53,584 bases of DNA. Source: a virus. The notes below the pieces were generated by a model, which did not search any database, was not told the origin of the DNA, and was given only the letters and a program-made list of their open reading frames with translations. Both the position numbers and the translations under genes were made by a program. Location: the UHGV virus genome UHGV-0183426; one strand, written 5' to 3'. Shown here one piece after another: positions 570 through 20,114 of this stretch; positions within the stretch are counted from its first letter, which is position 1; each line of letters opens with the position of its first letter.

Positions 570-1291
570 TATTCACCCCGCGTCACTCGCTTAATTTCGT
601 TGTCAGCCCGCACCTCTTCTTTGAACAATTCAGCAATGGCGTCTTCATAGAAAGCCCGGTATTTCTTCCACCATGTTGATCGGCTTACCGGGAAAACAAG
701 CTGATTAACCGCCTGCCGGACAAGATCTACAGGGAAACGCGAGTACCCGCGCCCGCCGCAATGCTGGCACGTTTTGAACACTGGCATTTCCGCCGCTTCA
801 CTGGCTGCTTTATCCGGTACTTCGCCACGGCCCTTGCATTGTTTACAATGATTGCGAACTGTCCCATGCCCCTTGCATTTTTTGCAAAGGTGTTTTTCAC
901 CGTATTCGTCAAACGTAAATTTATATCCGCCGCACTCCATGCAAGTTTTTTCCGTCGCGGCGCTCTGGCAATAATCCCGAAACGCGAAAACGGCAATAAG
1001 AATAATGAGATCATTGCGTTTGGCCTCGTCCAGTTCCATAACGTATTCATAGTCTTTTGCCATAGCCCTTAAACGTTCTATAAGCAAAACTACGGCCTTA
1101 TGTTTTTCGGCTTGTGATAGTTCCATCTTCCCTAAAAAAGCGCTGTAACCAAGCTCTACGCGCGATTGCGCCATACCTGCGGCAGTTAGTGCATCCGTAG
1201 TATTAAGCGCATCAGGGGACGTGCCCCGGCTTTCATCTGACAAACGAGGTGATTTTGGGAAGTGGAATTTAAGAATTGATTCCAGATTCAT
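569..1291 (-). CDS. Q: late-gene antitermination protein Q-like
   Basis: 240 aa; N-terminus MNLESILK... and paired CxxC motifs resemble Q of lambdoid prophages as I recall them; sits directly after rusA/ninG. Confidence 0.65.
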   Translation of the reverse strand: MNLESILKFHFPKSPRLSDESRGTSPDALNTTDALTAAGMAQSRVELGYSAFLGKMELSQAEKHKAVVLLIERLRAMAKDYEYVMELDEAKRNDLIILIAVFAFRDYCQSAATEKTCMECGGYKFTFDEYGEKHLCKKCKGHGTVRNHCKQCKGRGEVPDKAASEAAEMPVFKTCQHCGGRGYSRFPVDLVRQAVNQLVFPVSRSTWWKKYRAFYEDAIAELFKEEVRADNEIKRVTRGE

Positions 1292-1473
1292 TATTTGCCC
1301 CCGTAACGCGCAACCAGTCTTTTGCGATCAGATATTGCCTGCACCAACTTTCGTTCAAGCTCTTTAAGCGCAAGCAATTCTCGCATGTGGAAAGCCTGTA
1401 TTTGTCGCACGGTTTCTAAATCATGCTCATCGCGCTGAATATCTATTTGCAGATCTTTAATTTCGTTTTTCAT
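1291..1473 (-). CDS. hypothetical protein (60 aa)
   Basis: ORF track; coupled to neighbours. Confidence 0.35.
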   Translation of the reverse strand: MKNEIKDLQIDIQRDEHDLETVRQIQAFHMRELLALKELERKLVQAISDRKRLVARYGGK

Positions 1474-1706
1474 TGTTCTACCACCTTAAACCTAGTTTTA
1501 AAATTACCCTGCAAGAAATACTCGTTTTTTGATGGGAAATACTGGACTAATCGCCATGCGTCTGCTTCGTCGAAATCAGATACAAGATCATCTTGTAAAA
1601 TGAAGGCAAAGCATCCATGCTTTATAAAACCTGAATATTTTTTACCTTCAGTGAAAAAATCGACGCTTGATTGAGTACATTTAACAACAATGTTTATTAG
1701 CTCCAT
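1470..1706 (-). CDS. hypothetical protein (78 aa)
   Basis: ORF track. Confidence 0.35.
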   Translation of the reverse strand: MELINIVVKCTQSSVDFFTEGKKYSGFIKHGCFAFILQDDLVSDFDEADAWRLVQYFPSKNEYFLQGNFKTRFKVVEQ

Positions 1707-2109
1707 TGTCGCCCCACATATCAGTTAAGTATTCATTAATATCCGGCAACATGTCGTTGCGTTCTCGTACCTTGATAAATAAGAGTCCGCCTTTTACCTT
1801 CCGGCAACGAACAAACTTCATTGCGGCAACCTGGCTGTCATCGGCCCAAAAGCCGGAATAGGTTATAGCGTCAAATAACGCTTTCCCTATATTATCTATA
1901 TCGCGTCTTCTGTTGTCTGGCGGCGCAATATAAACCGTTATCGATAACCTGCACTTTAGATTTATATCAAGATTAAAACGCCTTATAACCTCCCTCACCC
2001 ATTCCCTGTATTTCTTCCCCTCCTTGCTTATATAGTTAACCCCTCTTGCGTGGCGGTAATATCTGTTACATGATGGCGGGTAAGGCAGGATAAATGTATA
2101 TTCGTTCAT
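1681..2109 (-). CDS. rusA: Holliday junction resolvase RusA
   Basis: 142 aa; LPYPPSCNRYYR signature typical of RusA. Confidence 0.85.
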   Translation of the reverse strand: MNEYTFILPYPPSCNRYYRHARGVNYISKEGKKYREWVREVIRRFNLDINLKCRLSITVYIAPPDNRRRDIDNIGKALFDAITYSGFWADDSQVAAMKFVRCRKVKGGLLFIKVRERNDMLPDINEYLTDMWGDNGANKHCC

Positions 2110-2711
2110 GCTGCCTTTCTCCTTAAGGCGTCTAATTTAGACTGATAGACTTTTATGATTTCCTTACATTCTTCTATCGTCCATTTGTGAGTTTCGTTGT
2201 TGTTCTCCAGCGCCACCACCCTGGCGAGGCCAATTTTTCGAATCAGCGCCGGGCGATACCCTCCGATGTTGCCATCTAATGTCTGGTTGCAGTGCCTGCA
2301 TTGTTTATGAACGTTATCTTCATTGAAGCGAAGGTGTCCGGCGGCGGCTACAGTCCTATAATGGCCCGCATCGTATCCGCATTGCTCACCGTAATAAGTC
2401 CCGCAGGATATACACGGCAAACGCGCATCACGTTCGCGGATATAGGCATTAAATACCGCTTGCGCCTGTTTCAGCCAGTAGCTACGCGGATTTAACTGCT
2501 TACGCTTCCGGTTGCGTTCTTCCCGCTGGCTGTTGCGGCGTTTCTTCCGTTCCATCGCCTTCATAGCCTTTTCACGGTCGCGGCATAGCTGGTCAAACTT
2601 CAGTTCTTCCAGACATTCATCGCTGCACCACGTTTGATTATGATATTTAGGCTCAAAAAAAACGCCGCAGCACTTGCAACGGCGTCTTATGGGTTTTTTA
2701 GGGTTTTGCAT
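2106..2711 (-). CDS. ninG: NinG/Rap recombination protein
   Basis: 201 aa; Cys clusters and PRSYWLKQAQ...LPCISCG...DAGHYR...LRFNE...HKQC...WTIEECK match lambda NinG as recalled. Confidence 0.85.
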   Translation of the reverse strand: MQNPKKPIRRRCKCCGVFFEPKYHNQTWCSDECLEELKFDQLCRDREKAMKAMERKKRRNSQREERNRKRKQLNPRSYWLKQAQAVFNAYIRERDARLPCISCGTYYGEQCGYDAGHYRTVAAAGHLRFNEDNVHKQCRHCNQTLDGNIGGYRPALIRKIGLARVVALENNNETHKWTIEECKEIIKVYQSKLDALRRKAA

Positions 2712-3060
2712 AAAACCACCCCGATTATTTTTGATTCTCTGTTTCGTTCAGCCTTTCGGCGTGTCCGGCCCTTAGCCAATGTTCTAAGCATTCGTTGCAC
2801 TCGTTACAGCCTCCTTTCTTCGTGCTGCATACATTGCACATTGCACGCATAACGCTTTCTCGTTCATAGTCGTCATGCCATTGGTAATTATCAAAAGGCA
2901 TAATGCTCTCTCCTTTTCAGGTGATTTCTACGCATTTCAGCGCTGCCGGATTTTTAAAGAGCATTTTGTTTGCTTGAAGTATACAAAATGGATACGTGCT
3001 AACAAAGTGTAAAGCGCCATTATGTGACATTCATCACACAATGACGCCATTTTGTAAACT

Positions 3061-3824
3061 TCAGTCCGGCAAAACGCGGTTGAGCGTAGTACGATTGATG
3101 GCCCGGTCGTTAGCTAGGAATACAGCACGGGCGAAGCCACGCGGCGTTAGTGAGCGGATCATCTTTGTTCGCTTTGATTTTCCGCCTAACTTCGCGTGCT
3201 GCTTACTGTCTTCCCATTCATCTGGCATCGGCACAGGACGGAATAGCGGCTGCTTAAATCCATTCCCGCACCAAATACAAGTTTTCTTCGTGTAGGCATC
3301 GCGGTCGGCAATGTATTCCGGGAAAGCAGGATGTTTGTCATCTTCAGGCAGGTAGCCACCGTAAACGCAAGGATTGAAGATAAAATCCGGTTTACGCCAT
3401 AACGTTGACAGTGCGCCAACTGGATTTTCCACCATCCACGGCACGTTATACATATTCGCCAGTTTTTCTACAATTTTTGCGTTATACGCCGCCTTTACCT
3501 GGAAGCCAGGATCTTTTTTCCGTTTATCAGCGAACCAACGAGCGCCTGATACGGCAAGATCATCACACGGAGGAAAGCCCAAGATAATGTCAGGATCTGG
3601 ATAAACAGACAATTCAGGGGAGAACATTACCAGGAAATGGCTGTCAATCCATACGTTAACATATTCAATATTTGGATGAATTATTTTTACCCCGTCATAA
3701 TCCCCGTGATTAGCGCCGTCATAGTTGAAGCAATAGCATTTATACCAGCTTCCGCCCAATCTTTAACGGCGTACCCGCTTCCGTCGTACAGCGACCAGAT
3801 AACCCAATTTCTAAGCCCGCTCAT
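3061..3824 (-). pseudogene. C5-cytosine DNA methyltransferase-like gene split between two frames
   Basis: Small ORF 3687..3824 encodes a motif-I-like N-terminus (VIWSLYDGSGYAVKDWAEAG); ORF 3061..3759 in another frame carries motif IV-like GFPPCDD, motif VI-like VENPVG and motif IX/X-like RSLTPRGFARAVF; no target-recognition domain. Confidence 0.5.
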
Positions 3825-4366
3825 TTTCTACCCTCAAACGTGAAATAGCGGCGCATGATGATAGTAATCACCGTTACCGCTGCCATTTTTGAGATGAATT
3901 GAATAGCTGATATTTCCGGCATAAATGCCATAAACGATAGCGTGGGAAAAATTAACGCATCGCCAATGGCGGACGCTATATTTGCAGGCCAGCGTTTGGA
4001 ATCGAAATCACCAGGTAGAACCCGGTAAACGCCGCCAGAAATAAGCGCACCGGAAACAACCGCGACGAATGACGCGATCGCCACCATTCCGGCGTCGTAA
4101 TTTATCAGCACCGTGATTGCGCCAGCGGCGGCGCATGTTGTAGCCGACCATTTCAGGCCGCCGTCATATAACAGAAGGTCACGGATCATCATATTGACAC
4201 ACACTGCGGCTACCGTGGTGATCGGAATCACCCACGGGCCGCAATGGTTAACAATAAGATTGATAATCACGAAAACGGCGACATAAACGCAGGCTAATAA
4301 CCTGTCAATTGTCACCCTTTCCATTTGGATCGTACCTCTTATCATGAATACATTCCGATCTGTCAA
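3821..4366 (-). CDS. integral membrane protein (speculatively YhhQ/VUT-like transporter)
   Basis: 181 aa, several hydrophobic segments; WPANIASAIGDALIFPTLSF loosely resembles a YhhQ motif; true start probably an internal Met near 4321. Confidence 0.45.
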   Translation of the reverse strand: MTDRNVFMIRGTIQMERVTIDRLLACVYVAVFVIINLIVNHCGPWVIPITTVAAVCVNMMIRDLLLYDGGLKWSATTCAAAGAITVLINYDAGMVAIASFVAVVSGALISGGVYRVLPGDFDSKRWPANIASAIGDALIFPTLSFMAFMPEISAIQFISKMAAVTVITIIMRRYFTFEGRK

Positions 4367-4817
4367 ACTTCAAATCAAGCCAATTAGCGACCTCACCGTT
4401 AAACTTCACAGTAGGAATTATTTTCCCAGGAATAATCGACTGGTCAGGCACTGAAATATCAGAGTAAAGTTTTATCCCTCCGCTGATAGGGAGATCAAAA
4501 ACAGCCTGTTTCTTTCTTTGTTCTTCCTCACGTTCCGTTAATATTTGCTCAGCTTTTAGCGCGTTATAGCTAATTAAATCAATTAGTGTGTCTGTCGGAT
4601 CGCTGTTATTGCTCAAAATGGCTTCTAAACGCGCCTCCTTGAGACAAATTAGCAGATCCCATACATCAAGCGGTGTTAAATTTGCTCCCTTCTTAGCGTT
4701 GTAAATAGTTGCTATTTTTGGCGCTGATTTTTCCTCTTTTTTGTCGTATCCGTTTTGCTTACCTCTTTGCTCTATGGTTTCTGCTGCAAGTCTTAATAAA
4801 TCTGCTGCCTTAGTCAT
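4305..4817 (-). CDS. hypothetical protein (170 aa)
   Basis: ORF track; between dam and membrane protein. Confidence 0.45.
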   Translation of the reverse strand: MTKAADLLRLAAETIEQRGKQNGYDKKEEKSAPKIATIYNAKKGANLTPLDVWDLLICLKEARLEAILSNNSDPTDTLIDLISYNALKAEQILTEREEEQRKKQAVFDLPISGGIKLYSDISVPDQSIIPGKIIPTVKFNGEVANWLDLKFDRSECIHDKRYDPNGKGDN

Positions 4818-5349
4818 TATTTTCGCCTCTCGCGTATAGCTCTTTACGTGTTATCTGCGTGAAAATACATTCATGTCTGCACCGTGGATGCCAGATCAAG
4901 AACAAGCTCCCTTTATTGTTTCCGCTTGCTGGCTTACCAGTAGCGGCATTAATAAATGCCAGCCTCCCGCGCGTTATTAATCGGCATTCGTTTGCCGTCT
5001 CCACGCCGTTCATAAACCAGCTAACAGAAATGTCAGCTGGCAATAACATTACGCATCCGATATGGTTTCTATGGTGTTCAAGCGCCGCCTTATCGACGAA
5101 TGGTCCAGGATTTGAATATGGTGGATTCATCCAGACATACTCACCAGGCATCGCCACCGCTCCCCACGGATAATGTAGCGTGTCCATTTCTTCTGTTATA
5201 TATCGCGGAACTAATGCGTTTTCCTTGTTTGCAGCCACATCCGCGACGAATTCGAATTCACGATCCATACCTCTAAAAACAGGTTTCGGCGTCTGCCATA
5301 GGTCTTTTATTTCTTTCGGCGTGTGGCTGCCGCCGTAATCATTTTTCAT
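4810..5349 (-). CDS. dam: phage-type DNA N6-adenine methyltransferase
   Basis: 179 aa; WQTP...EFVADVAA...WMNPPYS (NPPY catalytic motif) typical of small phage Dam. Confidence 0.8.
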   Translation of the reverse strand: MKNDYGGSHTPKEIKDLWQTPKPVFRGMDREFEFVADVAANKENALVPRYITEEMDTLHYPWGAVAMPGEYVWMNPPYSNPGPFVDKAALEHHRNHIGCVMLLPADISVSWFMNGVETANECRLITRGRLAFINAATGKPASGNNKGSLFLIWHPRCRHECIFTQITRKELYARGENND

Positions 5350-5358
5350 TACGCCCCC

Positions 5359-5592
5359 TTAGAAATAATCCTGATCAGTTCCCCATCGGTTGTTTAAATA
5401 CCCCACCAGCCAGACAAAACGTTCGATACTGATTAGCGGGGCGACCTTGCGATAATGCTTTTCTAATATCAGCCGCGTAGCTTTATCGCTGTAGCCGTTT
5501 TTCTCCACCTCCGCTTTGCAGGCAGAAAGCGCTGCGCGGGCGGCAGCTTTTACGGCGTTAAATTGCGGCTCTGACAGGTTAAATAAAGCCAT
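5359..5592 (-). CDS. hypothetical protein
   Basis: ORF track 5359..5649; start trimmed to internal Met to avoid overlap. Confidence 0.35.
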   Translation of the reverse strand: MALFNLSEPQFNAVKAAARAALSACKAEVEKNGYSDKATRLILEKHYRKVAPLISIERFVWLVGYLNNRWGTDQDYF

Positions 5593-5593
5593 T

Positions 5594-5836
5594 TCATAAA
5601 TAATCAGTAGAATCAGCGAAAAAGAACCCAACAAATACACTAACAGCAATAATGATCCTTAACATATAAAGCGCATCATCAGGTGATGGCATTTCTGGTA
5701 GTTCCCATGTAACAAAAGACACACCGCATAAAATTCCAATAAGAACCGTAGCTATGCATGAGAATACAAAAAAAGAACAAAATAGCCAGCCCATAATGAA
5801 GTCAATAAGTGCACGCATCATTCTAAACGTCCTCAA
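5594..5836 (-). CDS. hypothetical membrane protein (80 aa)
   Basis: two hydrophobic segments. Confidence 0.4.
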   Translation of the reverse strand: MRTFRMMRALIDFIMGWLFCSFFVFSCIATVLIGILCGVSFVTWELPEMPSPDDALYMLRIIIAVSVFVGFFFADSTDYL

Positions 5837-6026
5837 TCACACCGTCTGGCACGCGAAGTTTTATATCAAGTACATGATAATCACACATTTCCTGATAATG
5901 GTGATCCGGCCTGCTGCCGAAATACCATTTACCTTCCATATAAAAATAAACGCCGAAAACATTTCCGGGCGCTGCCTTTGTTGCTGATTCTGGAATCTTC
6001 CATTCCCTATAGTGTTTAAACTTCAT
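5823..6026 (-). CDS. hypothetical protein (67 aa)
   Basis: ORF track. Confidence 0.35.
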   Translation of the reverse strand: MKFKHYREWKIPESATKAAPGNVFGVYFYMEGKWYFGSRPDHHYQEMCDYHVLDIKLRVPDGVIEDV

Positions 6027-6207
6027 ACATTAACACCGCCTTTTTAAGTGCGCTCAATTCAAAGTGCATAAGACAAAAATGCTGTACACCACCAACAATA
6101 CTGACCTGATAAATATCACCAACGCAGTTATAGTAATAACAACCAAATTGACCGATTCCGGCTAATTTAGCGTTATCCGGTATCATGTATTCGCCAACCT
6201 TTTTCAT
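6016..6207 (-). CDS. hypothetical protein (63 aa)
   Basis: ORF track. Confidence 0.35.
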   Translation of the reverse strand: MKKVGEYMIPDNAKLAGIGQFGCYYYNCVGDIYQVSIVGGVQHFCLMHFELSALKKAVLMYEV

Positions 6208-6305
6208 AGATCACCTCATATGGTATTCAATAAACCACCTGATAAACAGGCATAAGGCAATAAAACCCCAGCAACAGCACATATAAAACAATGTATCGTC
6301 CATAA

Positions 6306-6584
6306 TTAAGCCTCAATAACACCGTAATCAAACGTCCCTAAATACCGTTCTATACTTACAACCTCAATACCATCAATGCACCGTTTCCACACAGACACCT
6401 GGCTTTCATTTTCTCTGAAGTGCATATTAGAAAGCACTTCATCGGCTGGATAGCCTTTCCCAGCGACGTAGGCATCGTGACCTACGCCACCTTCTACGCA
6501 ATAAAGCATCAATTCGCGTTCCATTTCGCTTCCTCCGCACCGTAAACCTTTTGATTTTGGCTTACAAAACGGATATGCGATCAC
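6306..6584 (-). CDS. hypothetical protein (92 aa)
   Basis: ORF track. Confidence 0.4.
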   Translation of the reverse strand: MIAYPFCKPKSKGLRCGGSEMERELMLYCVEGGVGHDAYVAGKGYPADEVLSNMHFRENESQVSVWKRCIDGIEVVSIERYLGTFDYGVIEA

Positions 6585-6622
6585 AATACATAATGTATAT
6601 TTATGTAATCGGAATCACTCGG

Positions 6623-7243
6623 TTAATGCAGTACACGTTTTTCCTGTTCAGGCATCGGCTGTGCGTTTTTCCGTGCATCATTAAGCACAGCGATAGCCGC
6701 CTGTACACCGAAATCATTTGCGCGCATATCATTGCCAACCATTTCACAGTAAAACAGCGGCATAAACGCTTTTACTTCTTCTTCTTTGTGGCCTTCCTCA
6801 ATGCATTTCTGCAACATCTTAACTTCAAAGATGTTTTTCATCAGGCCGCGCATAGAATGCAGTGAAACACTACCAAGCTGATCCTTGTTCAACGGGAAAA
6901 TAACAGCACTTCCGAACGCGAGCGGATCAACCTCTTCCGGCACTGGTACGCGTCCATATTCCTCTTCCATTTGTTTTACGAAAGTAAGGCAGAAGACATA
7001 ACGAACTACGGCAGTTTTTTCTTCAGCATTTAAAGACATATAATCGCGGATCGACGCATCCATCACAATATCAACAATCTGTAACGCCAGATTCAAATCA
7101 GCGTCATACTTGCCAGCTTCCATATCTTTCAATACTTCGTGATAATCTTTAATTTCAACTTCATGAAAACTTGCGTCTTCAGTGTAGCGAGTGATTAACA
7201 TGCCTTCGCTGCCGAGTGAATAAGCCGTTTTGATGTCTTTCAT
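6623..7243 (-). CDS. hypothetical protein (206 aa)
   Basis: ORF track; largest unknown early-left gene. Confidence 0.45.
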   Translation of the reverse strand: MKDIKTAYSLGSEGMLITRYTEDASFHEVEIKDYHEVLKDMEAGKYDADLNLALQIVDIVMDASIRDYMSLNAEEKTAVVRYVFCLTFVKQMEEEYGRVPVPEEVDPLAFGSAVIFPLNKDQLGSVSLHSMRGLMKNIFEVKMLQKCIEEGHKEEEVKAFMPLFYCEMVGNDMRANDFGVQAAIAVLNDARKNAQPMPEQEKRVLH

Positions 7244-7770: not shown

Positions 7771-8030
7771 ACGCCGAACATCCCATTCAGCCCGGCGAAC
7801 AATTTCCGCCAGTGGTTTTCAGCATAAGCCCGGAACGGCTTAACGCGAACATTTCGGGCCTTCAGTTCAATATTGTCAAAGAAACGCGGCTCTATTATTG
7901 TTCCGTCAAGATATTTAACCAGTAACGGGCGCTGATCGTAGCTCCCCTTATTCAGCACAACCAAGCCAGGGTCATCACGATATTCAGGCAATACGACAAG
8001 ATCACCAGCCTTTGCATCCCACGTTTTCAT
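7761..8030 (-). CDS. hypothetical protein (89 aa)
   Basis: ORF track. Confidence 0.45.
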   Translation of the reverse strand: MKTWDAKAGDLVVLPEYRDDPGLVVLNKGSYDQRPLLVKYLDGTIIEPRFFDNIELKARNVRVKPFRAYAENHWRKLFAGLNGMFGVWL

Positions 8031-8266
8031 TACATCAACCCTCTGAAAATAAAGCTAACAAGCGCAGCAAATGCGCCACAAAACACAACAACAAAAAGGA
8101 AGAAAATAATGCAAAACGCGACCGTCACAATGTCCTTACCGACTTTCATGATTGGCCTCACATGTTAGTAATGAGTTTAATGATCGCTACCGTGATATAA
8201 AGCGACACGCTGAGATACAGCACGCGATAGATAAAGCCGCAAGCAATGCGGCAATTTTTGCAAGAT

Positions 8267-8491
8267 TCATTTGCCACCCTCCGCAATGAACTTATCAAGC
8301 CATTTGTTATTAGCCAGCCGTTCTGCATCTTCGCCGAATGCTTTGCGGTCACTTAATTCCTGGCGAGTAGGGAAAGGCCATTTATCGTGCCACCCCGCAG
8401 ACGTTTCGAACTCGTACAGCCTGCCGCCGAAAGTGATAAGCTCATCAGCGCCGTCAGGAATTTCTCCGTCAACTTCTTTATCTTCGATCAT
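8267..8491 (-). CDS. hypothetical protein (74 aa)
   Basis: ORF track. Confidence 0.4.
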   Translation of the reverse strand: MIEDKEVDGEIPDGADELITFGGRLYEFETSAGWHDKWPFPTRQELSDRKAFGEDAERLANNKWLDKFIAEGGK

Positions 8492-8505
8492 GATTTAATA
8501 CCTCA

Positions 8506-8784
8506 TTAATCGTTAATAACCCGGCCCATACGCCCGCGATATTTGCGCATACGTGGATCGACATATTCAGGCCAGTGCATATCCGGTTTTCTTTGCAGCG
8601 GATAAAAACTTGCCTGCCAGTTGTCGAGCCATATTTGTTTTGCGTACAGGTCACTAAATCTTTTTGCCATCCGTTCCGCTGCCGTTCCGCATAAAAAAAG
8701 CCCATGATCGATTTGATCACGGGCTTCTCTTAGAACTTGCTCTTTTGTTCGCGGTGGCGGTGGCGGTTTTAAATAATCACCCAC
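8506..8784 (-). CDS. hypothetical protein (92 aa)
   Basis: ORF track. Confidence 0.4.
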   Translation of the reverse strand: MGDYLKPPPPPRTKEQVLREARDQIDHGLFLCGTAAERMAKRFSDLYAKQIWLDNWQASFYPLQRKPDMHWPEYVDPRMRKYRGRMGRVIND

Positions 8785-8799
8785 AGCTAACCTATTGAT

Positions 8800-9204
8800 T
8801 TAAAACGGGATGTCGTCATCGAAGTCAGGAGGAACATTATTCCCGTTATTATTCTGCTGCTGCGGCGGCGCTTTCTGCTGCTGGCCTTGCTGGTTAACAG
8901 CCATGAACTCAAACTCATTGACCGCCACTTCTACCGCAGTTCCCTTCGTGCCGTCGTTCCGGTCATATTGCCGAACATCCAGGCGACCGCTTACCACTAT
9001 TTTTCCACCCTTGCGGATATGTGGCGCTAATTTTTCCGCACGCTCACCAAATACCAGGCAAGTGACCCACATTGTCCGCTTATTATCGCCGTAGCCATTC
9101 GTTACAGCTAACGGAAAACTACCAATCGCTTTCCCGTTTTGTGTGTAGCGAACCTCCATATCATTACCGATATTCCCGCCCAGCGTGATTGAATTTAAAC
9201 TCAT
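8800..9204 (-). CDS. ssb: single-stranded DNA-binding protein
   Basis: 134 aa; OB-fold-like N-terminus, Gln/Pro-rich linker, acidic C-terminal tail DFDDDIPF. Confidence 0.9.
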   Translation of the reverse strand: MSLNSITLGGNIGNDMEVRYTQNGKAIGSFPLAVTNGYGDNKRTMWVTCLVFGERAEKLAPHIRKGGKIVVSGRLDVRQYDRNDGTKGTAVEVAVNEFEFMAVNQQGQQQKAPPQQQNNNGNNVPPDFDDDIPF

Positions 9205-19291: not shown

Positions 19292-19521
19292 TGGATAAAA
19301 CAGGGACAATCCTTCTTAGTCGCCCTGCCATCTGCCGGATGCTTGGTGGAATTAGCAGGGGAACATTTTATTTATGGCGTAAAAAATGGGAACGGAACGG
19401 AACTCCGTTCCCCGACCCGGTTGATGTACTTGGTAACGGTCGTGGCGTTATGTACCGCTATCAGGACGTAATGCAGTTCTTTGATCAGATTGGTTTAACG
19501 TCAGCCAAAGATAATACATAA
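19291..19521 (+). CDS. AlpA/excisionase-like small DNA-binding protein
   Basis: 76 aa; RPAICRMLGGISRGTFYLWRKK...FPDPV pattern typical of AlpA/Xis-type HTH proteins. Confidence 0.5.
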   Translation: MDKTGTILLSRPAICRMLGGISRGTFYLWRKKWERNGTPFPDPVDVLGNGRGVMYRYQDVMQFFDQIGLTSAKDNT

Positions 19522-20114
19522 TCAGCAAACTTATTTAGCGCCTCCTTTTGTTCGTCAAGATAATCGTATTTATCGTACACCGCCAGTATTCCCCTTAATG
19601 AATGGCCTAAGATCTTTTCCGCAATATGTACCGGAACACCTATAGCTGAAAGGTGTGTCCGGCACGTCCTGCGGAGGTCGTGACAGGACCATGATTTACC
19701 GCCCATCCTTTTACGCACGAAGATTGCGGCTACTTTTATCACCGATGCGTTTACTGGCCTGTTACCGCCGTTAATCACTGGCGGGAACACGTAATCATAC
19801 TCATGGGAGGATAACACCTCCCTGAGCATTTTTATCGACAAATCTGATAATCCCCGCCTGATTTCACTTCTTGTCTTCGCCACCGCTGCCGGGACGGTCC
19901 ACACCCCGTTATCCAGGTCGAGGTGCTCCCTTCTCATTTTCTGCAACTCCCCCACCCTGCACCCGGTGAGCAATAATAGCTTTAATGCTATCTTGTTCTG
20001 ACGGTAGATCTGCGAATCATCCACCGTTCGCCAGAAATGGCCTATTTCATCGCATGATAAATAACGCTCGCCAACCGCATAATTTTCGCCAACGTCAATA
20101 ACCCTGATATTGTT
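19485..20114 (-). pseudogene. int: tyrosine integrase remnant (catalytic domain only)
   Basis: contains LLLLTGCRVGEL (R), HDLRRTCRTHL (HxxR), LGHSLRGILAVYDKYDY (Y); frame is closed by a stop about 30 codons upstream of the GTG start and nothing upstream encodes the N-terminal domains. Confidence 0.65.

Follow-up and report, generated by a model that had tools for sequence, protein, structure and literature searches.

The viral genome UHGV-0183426 was analysed over its whole length of 53,584 nt, called the window below, and positions 3061-5349 were followed up in detail. Four genes lie there on the minus strand, in the order dam, a DUF6378 gene, a membrane-protein gene and a compact gene for a C5-cytosine methyltransferase (dcm), the last of which is split between two reading frames. 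An earlier reading of the letters (the original prediction) had described this stretch as a DNA-modification cluster, left three explanations for the split side by side and guessed that the membrane protein might be a transporter of the YhhQ type. The features were placed as follows, all on the minus strand.

4810-5349, minus strand: dam, phage-type N6-adenine DNA methyltransferase, 179 aa, with PF05869 and TIGR01712 matches and NPPY
4305-4817, minus strand: gene for a DUF6378 protein, 170 aa, PF19905 match at 1.9e-7
3821-4324, minus strand: predicted mini-VUT (YhhQ-family) polytopic membrane protein, 167 aa, likely ATG at 4324, as annotated in relatives
3687-3824, minus strand: dcm 5' fragment, 45 codons, comprising 27 native codons, then 18 out-of-frame codons and a stop
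3743-3744, minus strand: one-base deletion in dcm, placed by junction alignment with MagusPhagus, mEp021 and mEp010 and by a tblastn frame switch at 3744
3061-3759, minus strand: dcm body in the -1 frame, with homology from 3744 downwards
3562-3573, 3418-3429, 3277-3288 and 3136-3159, minus strand: sequence motifs PPC, ENPV, KKTC and IRSLTPRG of the dcm body, respectively
3013-3048, minus strand: hairpin with a 16-17 bp stem, directly 3' of the dcm stop (-26.8 kcal/mol, z -5.75)

The window was collinear with the complete genome of Escherichia phage MagusPhagus, circularly permuted. Over positions 2900-5500 it was 94% identical to MagusPhagus, its closest relative, and 86-88% identical to the group of mEp021, mEp010, mEp013, mEp044, mEp515 and mEp554, known as the 'mEpimmI' Nus-dependent non-lambdoid temperate coliphages (PMC11893012). 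The same four genes in the same order, at the same 86-88% DNA identity, are mEp021_30 to mEp021_33 of mEp021 (MH706966), annotated as a putative Dam, a hypothetical protein, a putative membrane protein with six transmembrane helices and a putative DNA cytosine methyltransferase. As in the window, the block in mEp021 is followed by a hairpin and then by NinF, NinG, RusA and Q. The hairpin was kept in mEp021, MagusPhagus and mEp010 with a varying loop, and the equivalent site in the mEp021 annotation is the predicted terminator TERM_4; nutR2 has been positioned downstream of the methylase gene (PMC11893012).

Neighbouring genes of the block overlapped by 8 nt (dam and the DUF6378 gene, where the DUF6378 start and the dam stop share ATGACTAA), by 20 nt (the DUF6378 gene and the VUT gene) and by 4 nt (VUT and dcm, ATGA). 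Such tight overlaps indicate one translationally coupled unit, and the four early genes are probably coupled in this way. Among 5426 complete E. coli genomes the block was found in 35, chromosomal every time; dam, the DUF6378 gene and the VUT gene were together in all 35 carriers, and all four genes in 30. In a more distant metagenomic phage, whose VUT and Dcm were 54% and 64% identical, the gene order was the same, again followed by NinG, RusA and Q. We read the region with good confidence as an accessory block common to mEp021-like (mEpimmI) temperate coliphages, in which dcm has here been inactivated by a one-base deletion. The block was already annotated in mEp021 and its families are known; it is no new modification system.

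The lesion was resolved to a single base. The methylase gene of mEp021 is uninterrupted and has 252 codons, whereas at the junction the window reads GCTGG-TATAAA where MagusPhagus, mEp021 and mEp010 read GCTGGTTATAAA or GC(T/A)GGATATAAA; the deletion allele at 3743/3744 reads GCTGGTATAAA. One more base and a single dcm open reading frame (ORF) of 252-260 codons were present in MagusPhagus, mEp021, mEp010 and the prophage of E. coli 09-00049. The missing base sits in a TT or AT dinucleotide with no long homopolymer. The original prediction had given the two fragments exactly these boundaries and had recognised the motif-I-like N-terminus, which here corresponds to DGSG at 3774-3785 within the 5' fragment; as for its question whether homologues would show two separate genes, the four relatives carry one uninterrupted gene. 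The deletion, at codon 28, cuts the S-adenosylmethionine-binding motif I off the rest of the enzyme. Because motif I is separated from the enzyme body, the phage most likely makes no active cytosine methylase, with Dam and the other two genes predicted to be intact.

The exact 45-aa aberrant product is public as DAH35074.1 and occurs on three contigs (Logan, ENA and NCBI). Of these, a 54,081-bp ENA contig was 100% identical to window positions 687-6824 (6138 nt), deletion included, and both DAH35072.1 and DAH35074.1 were exact protein matches from a metagenome-assembled, uncultivated 'Caudoviricetes sp.' genome. For a scan of frame breaks, the stop-to-stop ORFs of MagusPhagus of at least 50 aa were translated and compared with the window. 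The sole real gene found broken was dcm; the remaining flags fell on antisense ORFs, on mosaic junctions and on an A5/A4 difference in the intergenic region near the repressor. With the base restored, the ratio of nonsynonymous to synonymous substitution rates (dN/dS) of dcm against its relatives was 0.09-0.16. Since the repaired gene is still constrained, the lesion, if real, would be recent.

The lesion is probably a real mutation and not an assembly error. An indel introduced by sequencing or assembly, with an intact dcm in the phage itself, is an improbable alternative: it would fit a difference of one base only, a repaired gene that shows no further decay, and the presence of a second one-base difference from MagusPhagus, the A5/A4 site, but the deletion lies at a dinucleotide and not in a long homopolymer, no further real gene is frame-broken across 53.6 kb, and the identical allele stands on three contigs, one of them without a mismatch over 6.1 kb. 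Programmed -1 ribosomal frameshifting, by which both frames would be fused into a full-length methylase, agrees with the -1 offset of the body from the head and with the overlap of the frames by about 75 nt. It is nevertheless effectively excluded, because the four relatives have an uninterrupted single-frame gene with the extra base exactly at the deletion site, and because inspection of the sequence showed no X XXY YYZ slippery heptamer within the overlap; a shift after 3744 would moreover garble C32, N34, H40, G41 and Y43, which are invariant in the family.

It is scarcely more probable that both fragments are produced and come together as an active split enzyme. The head ORF does retain its ATG and remains coupled to the VUT stop, and the body ORF has a TTG at 3759, yet the head consists of 27 native and 18 unrelated residues, a two-gene arrangement at the deletion site was seen in none of the relatives compared, and the lesions found in relatives lie at different positions, as decay would leave them. 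Of the three explanations first offered, a frameshift mutation therefore stands, in the form of a one-base deletion; programmed frameshifting falls away, and the sequencing indel is the less favoured account.

Repaired by the insertion of one base, dcm encodes a 254-aa protein that matched phrog_757 ('DNA methyltransferase') over its full length at 3.6e-88 and shared 61% identity across 232 residues (E 1e-100) with bas06_0055, the Dcm of the Drexlerviridae phage KarlJaspers. GSG (motif I), PPC with the catalytic cysteine, ENPV, the KK pair and IRSLTPRG all occurred in the repaired protein and did not vary among 25 homologues. An AlphaFold2 (AF2) model of the intact homologue P0001, 96% identical to the window protein, reached a pLDDT of 83 and a pTM of 0.83; in Foldseek its best PDB matches were the catalytic domains of DNMT3A and DNMT3B (E about 3e-6, TM 0.4-0.5), and the prophage CP-933R methylase 3g7u was also matched, the matches spanning E 3e-6 to 3e-5. 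From these sequence matches and the predicted fold, the split gene is identified as a compact Dcm-like C5-cytosine methyltransferase, a disrupted member of the phrog_757/K42 Dcm family.

A C5-methyltransferase-like gene had been proposed at this place before, and phrog_757, the identity to KarlJaspers Dcm and the DNMT3A/3B-like predicted fold bear that out. The accompanying statement that the protein has no target-recognition domain is more aptly replaced by the description of about 40 residues, modelled at lower confidence, between KKTC and IRSLTPRG. The family comprised 2387 homologues, mostly of 227-260 aa, and was present in 1520 of 50,697 phage records, its carriers including T1-like Drexlerviridae, rV5-like phages, Klebsiella Webervirus, Dhillonvirus and Campylobacter phages. 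A conserved VUT-dcm pair was not found outside the mEp021 lineage; the neighbours of dcm in other phages were helicases or HNH genes.

A member characterised by experiment is the Dcm of phage K42, which is 95.4% identical to KarlJaspers (10.1101/2023.08.16.553469). The 711-bp length of bas06_0055 and its residues C82, E128, K175 and K176 match the 'Dcm' of that preprint, and these residues pair with C87, E133, K180 and K181 of the repaired window protein; both proteins are compact (236 against 254 aa), with catalytic Cys, ENV Glu and KK identically spaced. The K42 Dcm model of the preprint superposes on DNMT3A, as does the P0001 model here. The neighbours differ: in KarlJaspers the gene lies near a helicase and small ORFs, in the window near VUT and a terminator. 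K42 Dcm places 5-methylcytosine on the multicopy single-stranded DNA (msDNA) of retron Ec86 and thereby triggers retron defence, and in K42 mutants that escape Ec86 dcm was disrupted in 4/4, once by a 1-bp deletion and frameshift (10.1101/2023.08.16.553469). The K42 enzyme is thus shown to be active, whereas the window copy is frame-broken. The compact 'C5-MTase-like' genes found in more than 1500 phage records are of the same family as the trigger of retron Ec86.

Other members of the family were also damaged. The dcm of the E. coli KKa019 prophage was split at another position; among the homologues, P0089 was frameshifted just after ENPV, P0004 was N-truncated and P0114 had an in-frame deletion of the catalytic core. 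The window lesion is one more case of a dispensable gene lost, and recurrent dcm knock-outs in sequenced phages and prophages fit a gene that is dispensable or counter-selected. Losing the phage gene would cost little, since most E. coli hosts have a Dcm themselves. Loss might even be favoured, for example under retron defence, given that retron Ec86 responds to the Dcm of a related phage.

Further disturbance at the locus was observed in passing. In the T1-like phage LHE71 (OP455115) dcm, at 1187-1920 on the minus strand, was split, with matches of the hidden Markov model (HMM) to two ORFs in overlapping frames, 1498-1920 and 1187-1627; in the family this is a further disruption of independent origin. 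An HNH endonuclease gene replaced or interrupted dcm in five E. coli prophages (STEC306-308, E21845/O/A and RM9245), and E. coli N921 had an extra HNH-motif gene within the block, which suggests homing-endonuclease traffic at the dcm locus.

The membrane protein matched phrog_4899 at 4.5e-46. A word-based search with it returned close relatives only, but exhaustive phmmer retrieved 148 representatives at E up to 1e-3. PF02592 (Vut_1) was matched by 51 of 54 aligned distant homologues, the best at 1.9e-16; the homologue P0140 matched the window protein at E 2e-16 and itself carried PF02592. One aligned homologue matched QueF. Hydropathy showed five to six hydrophobic segments, and the six transmembrane helices annotated in the mEp021 homologue were called by TMHMM and Phobius. 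E. coli YhhQ, the preQ0/preQ1 queuosine-precursor transporter (PF02592), is likewise a polytopic inner-membrane protein; the window protein is phage-encoded, shorter (167 against 221 aa) and about 21% identical to it. Judged from these sequence relationships, the membrane protein is a member of the VUT/YhhQ transporter family.

The guess of a YhhQ-type transporter was therefore well founded: the homologues fell in VUT/YhhQ and not in an unrelated family, and a DpdA-like partner of the kind described below accompanies them in other phages. The ORF lies where it had been located and is open from a TTG at 4366 (3821-4366), but that start, which had been used then, is replaced here by the ATG at 4324, 42 nt downstream. 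At 0.01-0.08, dN/dS of the VUT gene was the lowest, hence the constraint the strongest, among the four block genes; selection this strongly purifying indicates that the transporter still does something. In mEp021-like phages and prophages, the product listed as 'hypothetical membrane protein' can be re-annotated as a VUT/YhhQ-type transporter.

Two further neighbourhoods of mini-VUT genes were noted. On Logan contig ERR11478511_293, from a phage of about 95 kb, positions 8001-9198 held a 35%-identical mini-VUT between a DNA ligase gene and the gene for a 234-aa protein with weak MazG and PRA-PH matches, a third kind of neighbourhood, of nucleotide-metabolism genes. In the temperate-phage early region of contigs L014 (6001-8258) and L016, a 46%-identical mini-VUT lay two genes upstream of a 300-aa N6/N4 methyltransferase (PF01555), a gene absent from the otherwise similar contig L015.

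Outside the mEp021 group, tblastn against phage genomes gave 14 records (13 distinct phages) with VUT homologues 28-35% identical to the window protein and of similar length (about 155-160 aa). In all nine cases examined (eight phages and one metagenome contig) the small VUT gene abutted or overlapped a gene for 243-275 aa, and these neighbours formed one homologous, DpdA-like family. The phages were the T1-like Opt-719 and LHE71, Phc (Enterobacter), RCIP0319, ECO111 5-P, Flyfo Tbat1_6, PEAT2 (Pectobacterium) and AB3P2 (Acinetobacter); examples of the pair lie at L022:4989-6289 and at LHE71 4016-5319. The VUT homologues of PEAT2 and AB3P2 matched PF02592 at about 1e-9, and in these two phages the DpdA-like gene is annotated 'queuine tRNA-ribosyltransferase', elsewhere 'hypothetical'. 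Three of the DpdA-like proteins were scanned against Pfam and gave no match. An arrangement of DpdA with an importer has been considered for phages lacking preQ0 synthesis by Hutinet et al. (PMC6884629), and phages, T1-like ones among them, in which VUT is paired with a DpdA-like gene that lacks annotation are candidate 7-deazaguanine modifiers using imported precursors. The slot next to VUT, filled by the DpdA-like gene in those phages, is filled by dcm in the window and the mEp021 lineage.

This pairing raises the question whether the block itself is a 7-deazaguanine DNA-modification module, its transporter importing preQ0 and the DUF6378 or methylase-like protein inserting it. Such a module would accord with the VUT membership of the transporter, with the DpdA-like gene adjoining its homologue in eight phage records and one metagenome contig, and with the constancy of dam-DUF6378-VUT across the E. 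coli carriers under strong purifying selection. We nonetheless consider it very unlikely. Searches of the window for a DpdA-like gene, by tblastn and with an HMM built from three VUT-adjacent DpdA-like proteins, were negative (best E about 0.1). The larger non-structural ORFs gave no TGT match, nor does the MagusPhagus annotation list such a gene; the preQ0 synthesis genes (FolE, QueD, QueE and QueC) were likewise absent from the scanned ORFs and from the annotation of relatives. The gene in the DpdA position has a predicted C5-methyltransferase fold, DUF6378 never adjoins VUT outside the mEp021 lineage, and every virus known with 7-deazaguanine DNA modifications encodes a DpdA (Hutinet 2023, PMC10516641). 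The observation already made in the original prediction, that no DpdA/TGT-like gene is present, thus agrees with the tblastn, HMM and ORF scans and with the MagusPhagus annotation, and since the window has no DpdA gene, 7-deazaguanine DNA modification is unsupported. Scans of the window for tRNA genes and Rfam families, preQ1 riboswitches included, found none.

What remains for the transporter is conjectural. It may import a 7-deazaguanine base (preQ0, preQ1 or queuine), which would here be usable only for queuosine in host tRNA; this import of a queuosine precursor is our best guess, put forward with low confidence. A broader proposal is doubtful: during lytic growth the orphan mini-VUT would take up a 7-deazaguanine base, or some other nucleobase or vitamin, for a role apart from DNA modification. 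If true, import could reset the queuosine status of host tRNA in favour of phage translation, or feed a new enzymatic activity of DUF6378. In the mEp021 lineage the transporter has been kept with no accompanying transglycosylase, which poses the question how the import of queuosine precursors would benefit a phage.

Several points weigh against the reading of the region as an accessory block with a VUT transporter and a lost dcm. Neither the repaired methylase nor the membrane protein matched any Pfam family (PF00145 and Vut_1, respectively, included) or NCBIfam at E up to 0.1, and neither matched the PDB sequences; a precomputed PF00145 match was present in only 2 of the 120 dcm homologues listed. 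Both assignments draw on PHROGs, exhaustive phmmer, a structure model and literature. The alignment of the close-family profile with the single E. coli YhhQ by hhalign was only moderate (127 columns, E 4.3e-5, probability 69%). The three contigs with the deletion allele may share one read set, so that a systematic error would be possible. CCWGG specificity is likely for the compact Dcm family by analogy, but comes from the literature, in which the specificity of K42 Dcm was itself partly assumed from the analogy with host Dcm (10.1101/2023.08.16.553469). The substrate proposed for the transporter is likewise taken from literature and gene neighbourhood. Selection for dcm loss, finally, is suggested by the retron analogy, and nothing in the analysis shows selection.

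Dam matched PF05869 over its full length (E 4.5e-52, 176.6 bits against a cutoff of 28.1) and the TIGR01712 equivalog at 142 bits (cutoff 97.05). Its catalytic motif NPPY, at residues 75-78, corresponds to window positions 5116-5127, and dN/dS against relatives was 0.03-0.07. By these matches it is an ordinary member of the phage Dam family PF05869/TIGR01712, in line with the phage-type N6-adenine methyltransferase with NPPY originally proposed.

The 170-aa ORF of that proposal, then without a family, was found at its given place and carries the DUF6378 domain. The protein has a conserved, all-helical N-terminal domain of about 100 aa followed by a variable tail, with dN/dS of 0.03-0.09 in the domain and 0.2-0.5 in the tail. 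Its AF2 model was unusable (pLDDT 44.6, pTM 0.25). Against Pfam at E up to 10 the protein matched DUF6378 itself and no other family, and the DUF6378 profile gave only noise against PDB sequences. Titles and abstracts of the literature mentioning DUF6378 give no function for it. An expected kinship with MazG-like/DUF1599 helical domains was not supported: in a comparison covering one protein, the VUT neighbour on contig ERR11478511_293, no similarity was found (hhalign probability 1.5%).

Elsewhere in the window, an integrase ORF at 19485-20024 on the minus strand encoded 179 aa with PF00589 and comprised the C-terminal catalytic half only. The match covered residues 199-411 of the MagusPhagus integrase (411 aa in all) with 52% identity, and the region upstream contained no N-terminal half; the phage may be unable to integrate, or the int module may be mosaic or decayed. 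The A4/A5 one-base difference from MagusPhagus lies at 12015-12035, in the stretch that separates the cI-like repressor gene from the replication genes. It breaks 'CDS0002', a PHANOTATE call of MagusPhagus that, overlapping the start of the repressor from the other strand, probably does not represent a real gene. Window positions 2106-2901 were also compared with MagusPhagus 706-1502, where NinG is annotated longer (687 bp) and overlaps NinF. Separate NinF (58 aa) and NinG (201 aa) were present in the window, mEp021 and E. coli 09-00049, and the frame difference at about 2700 is peculiar to MagusPhagus and not to the window.

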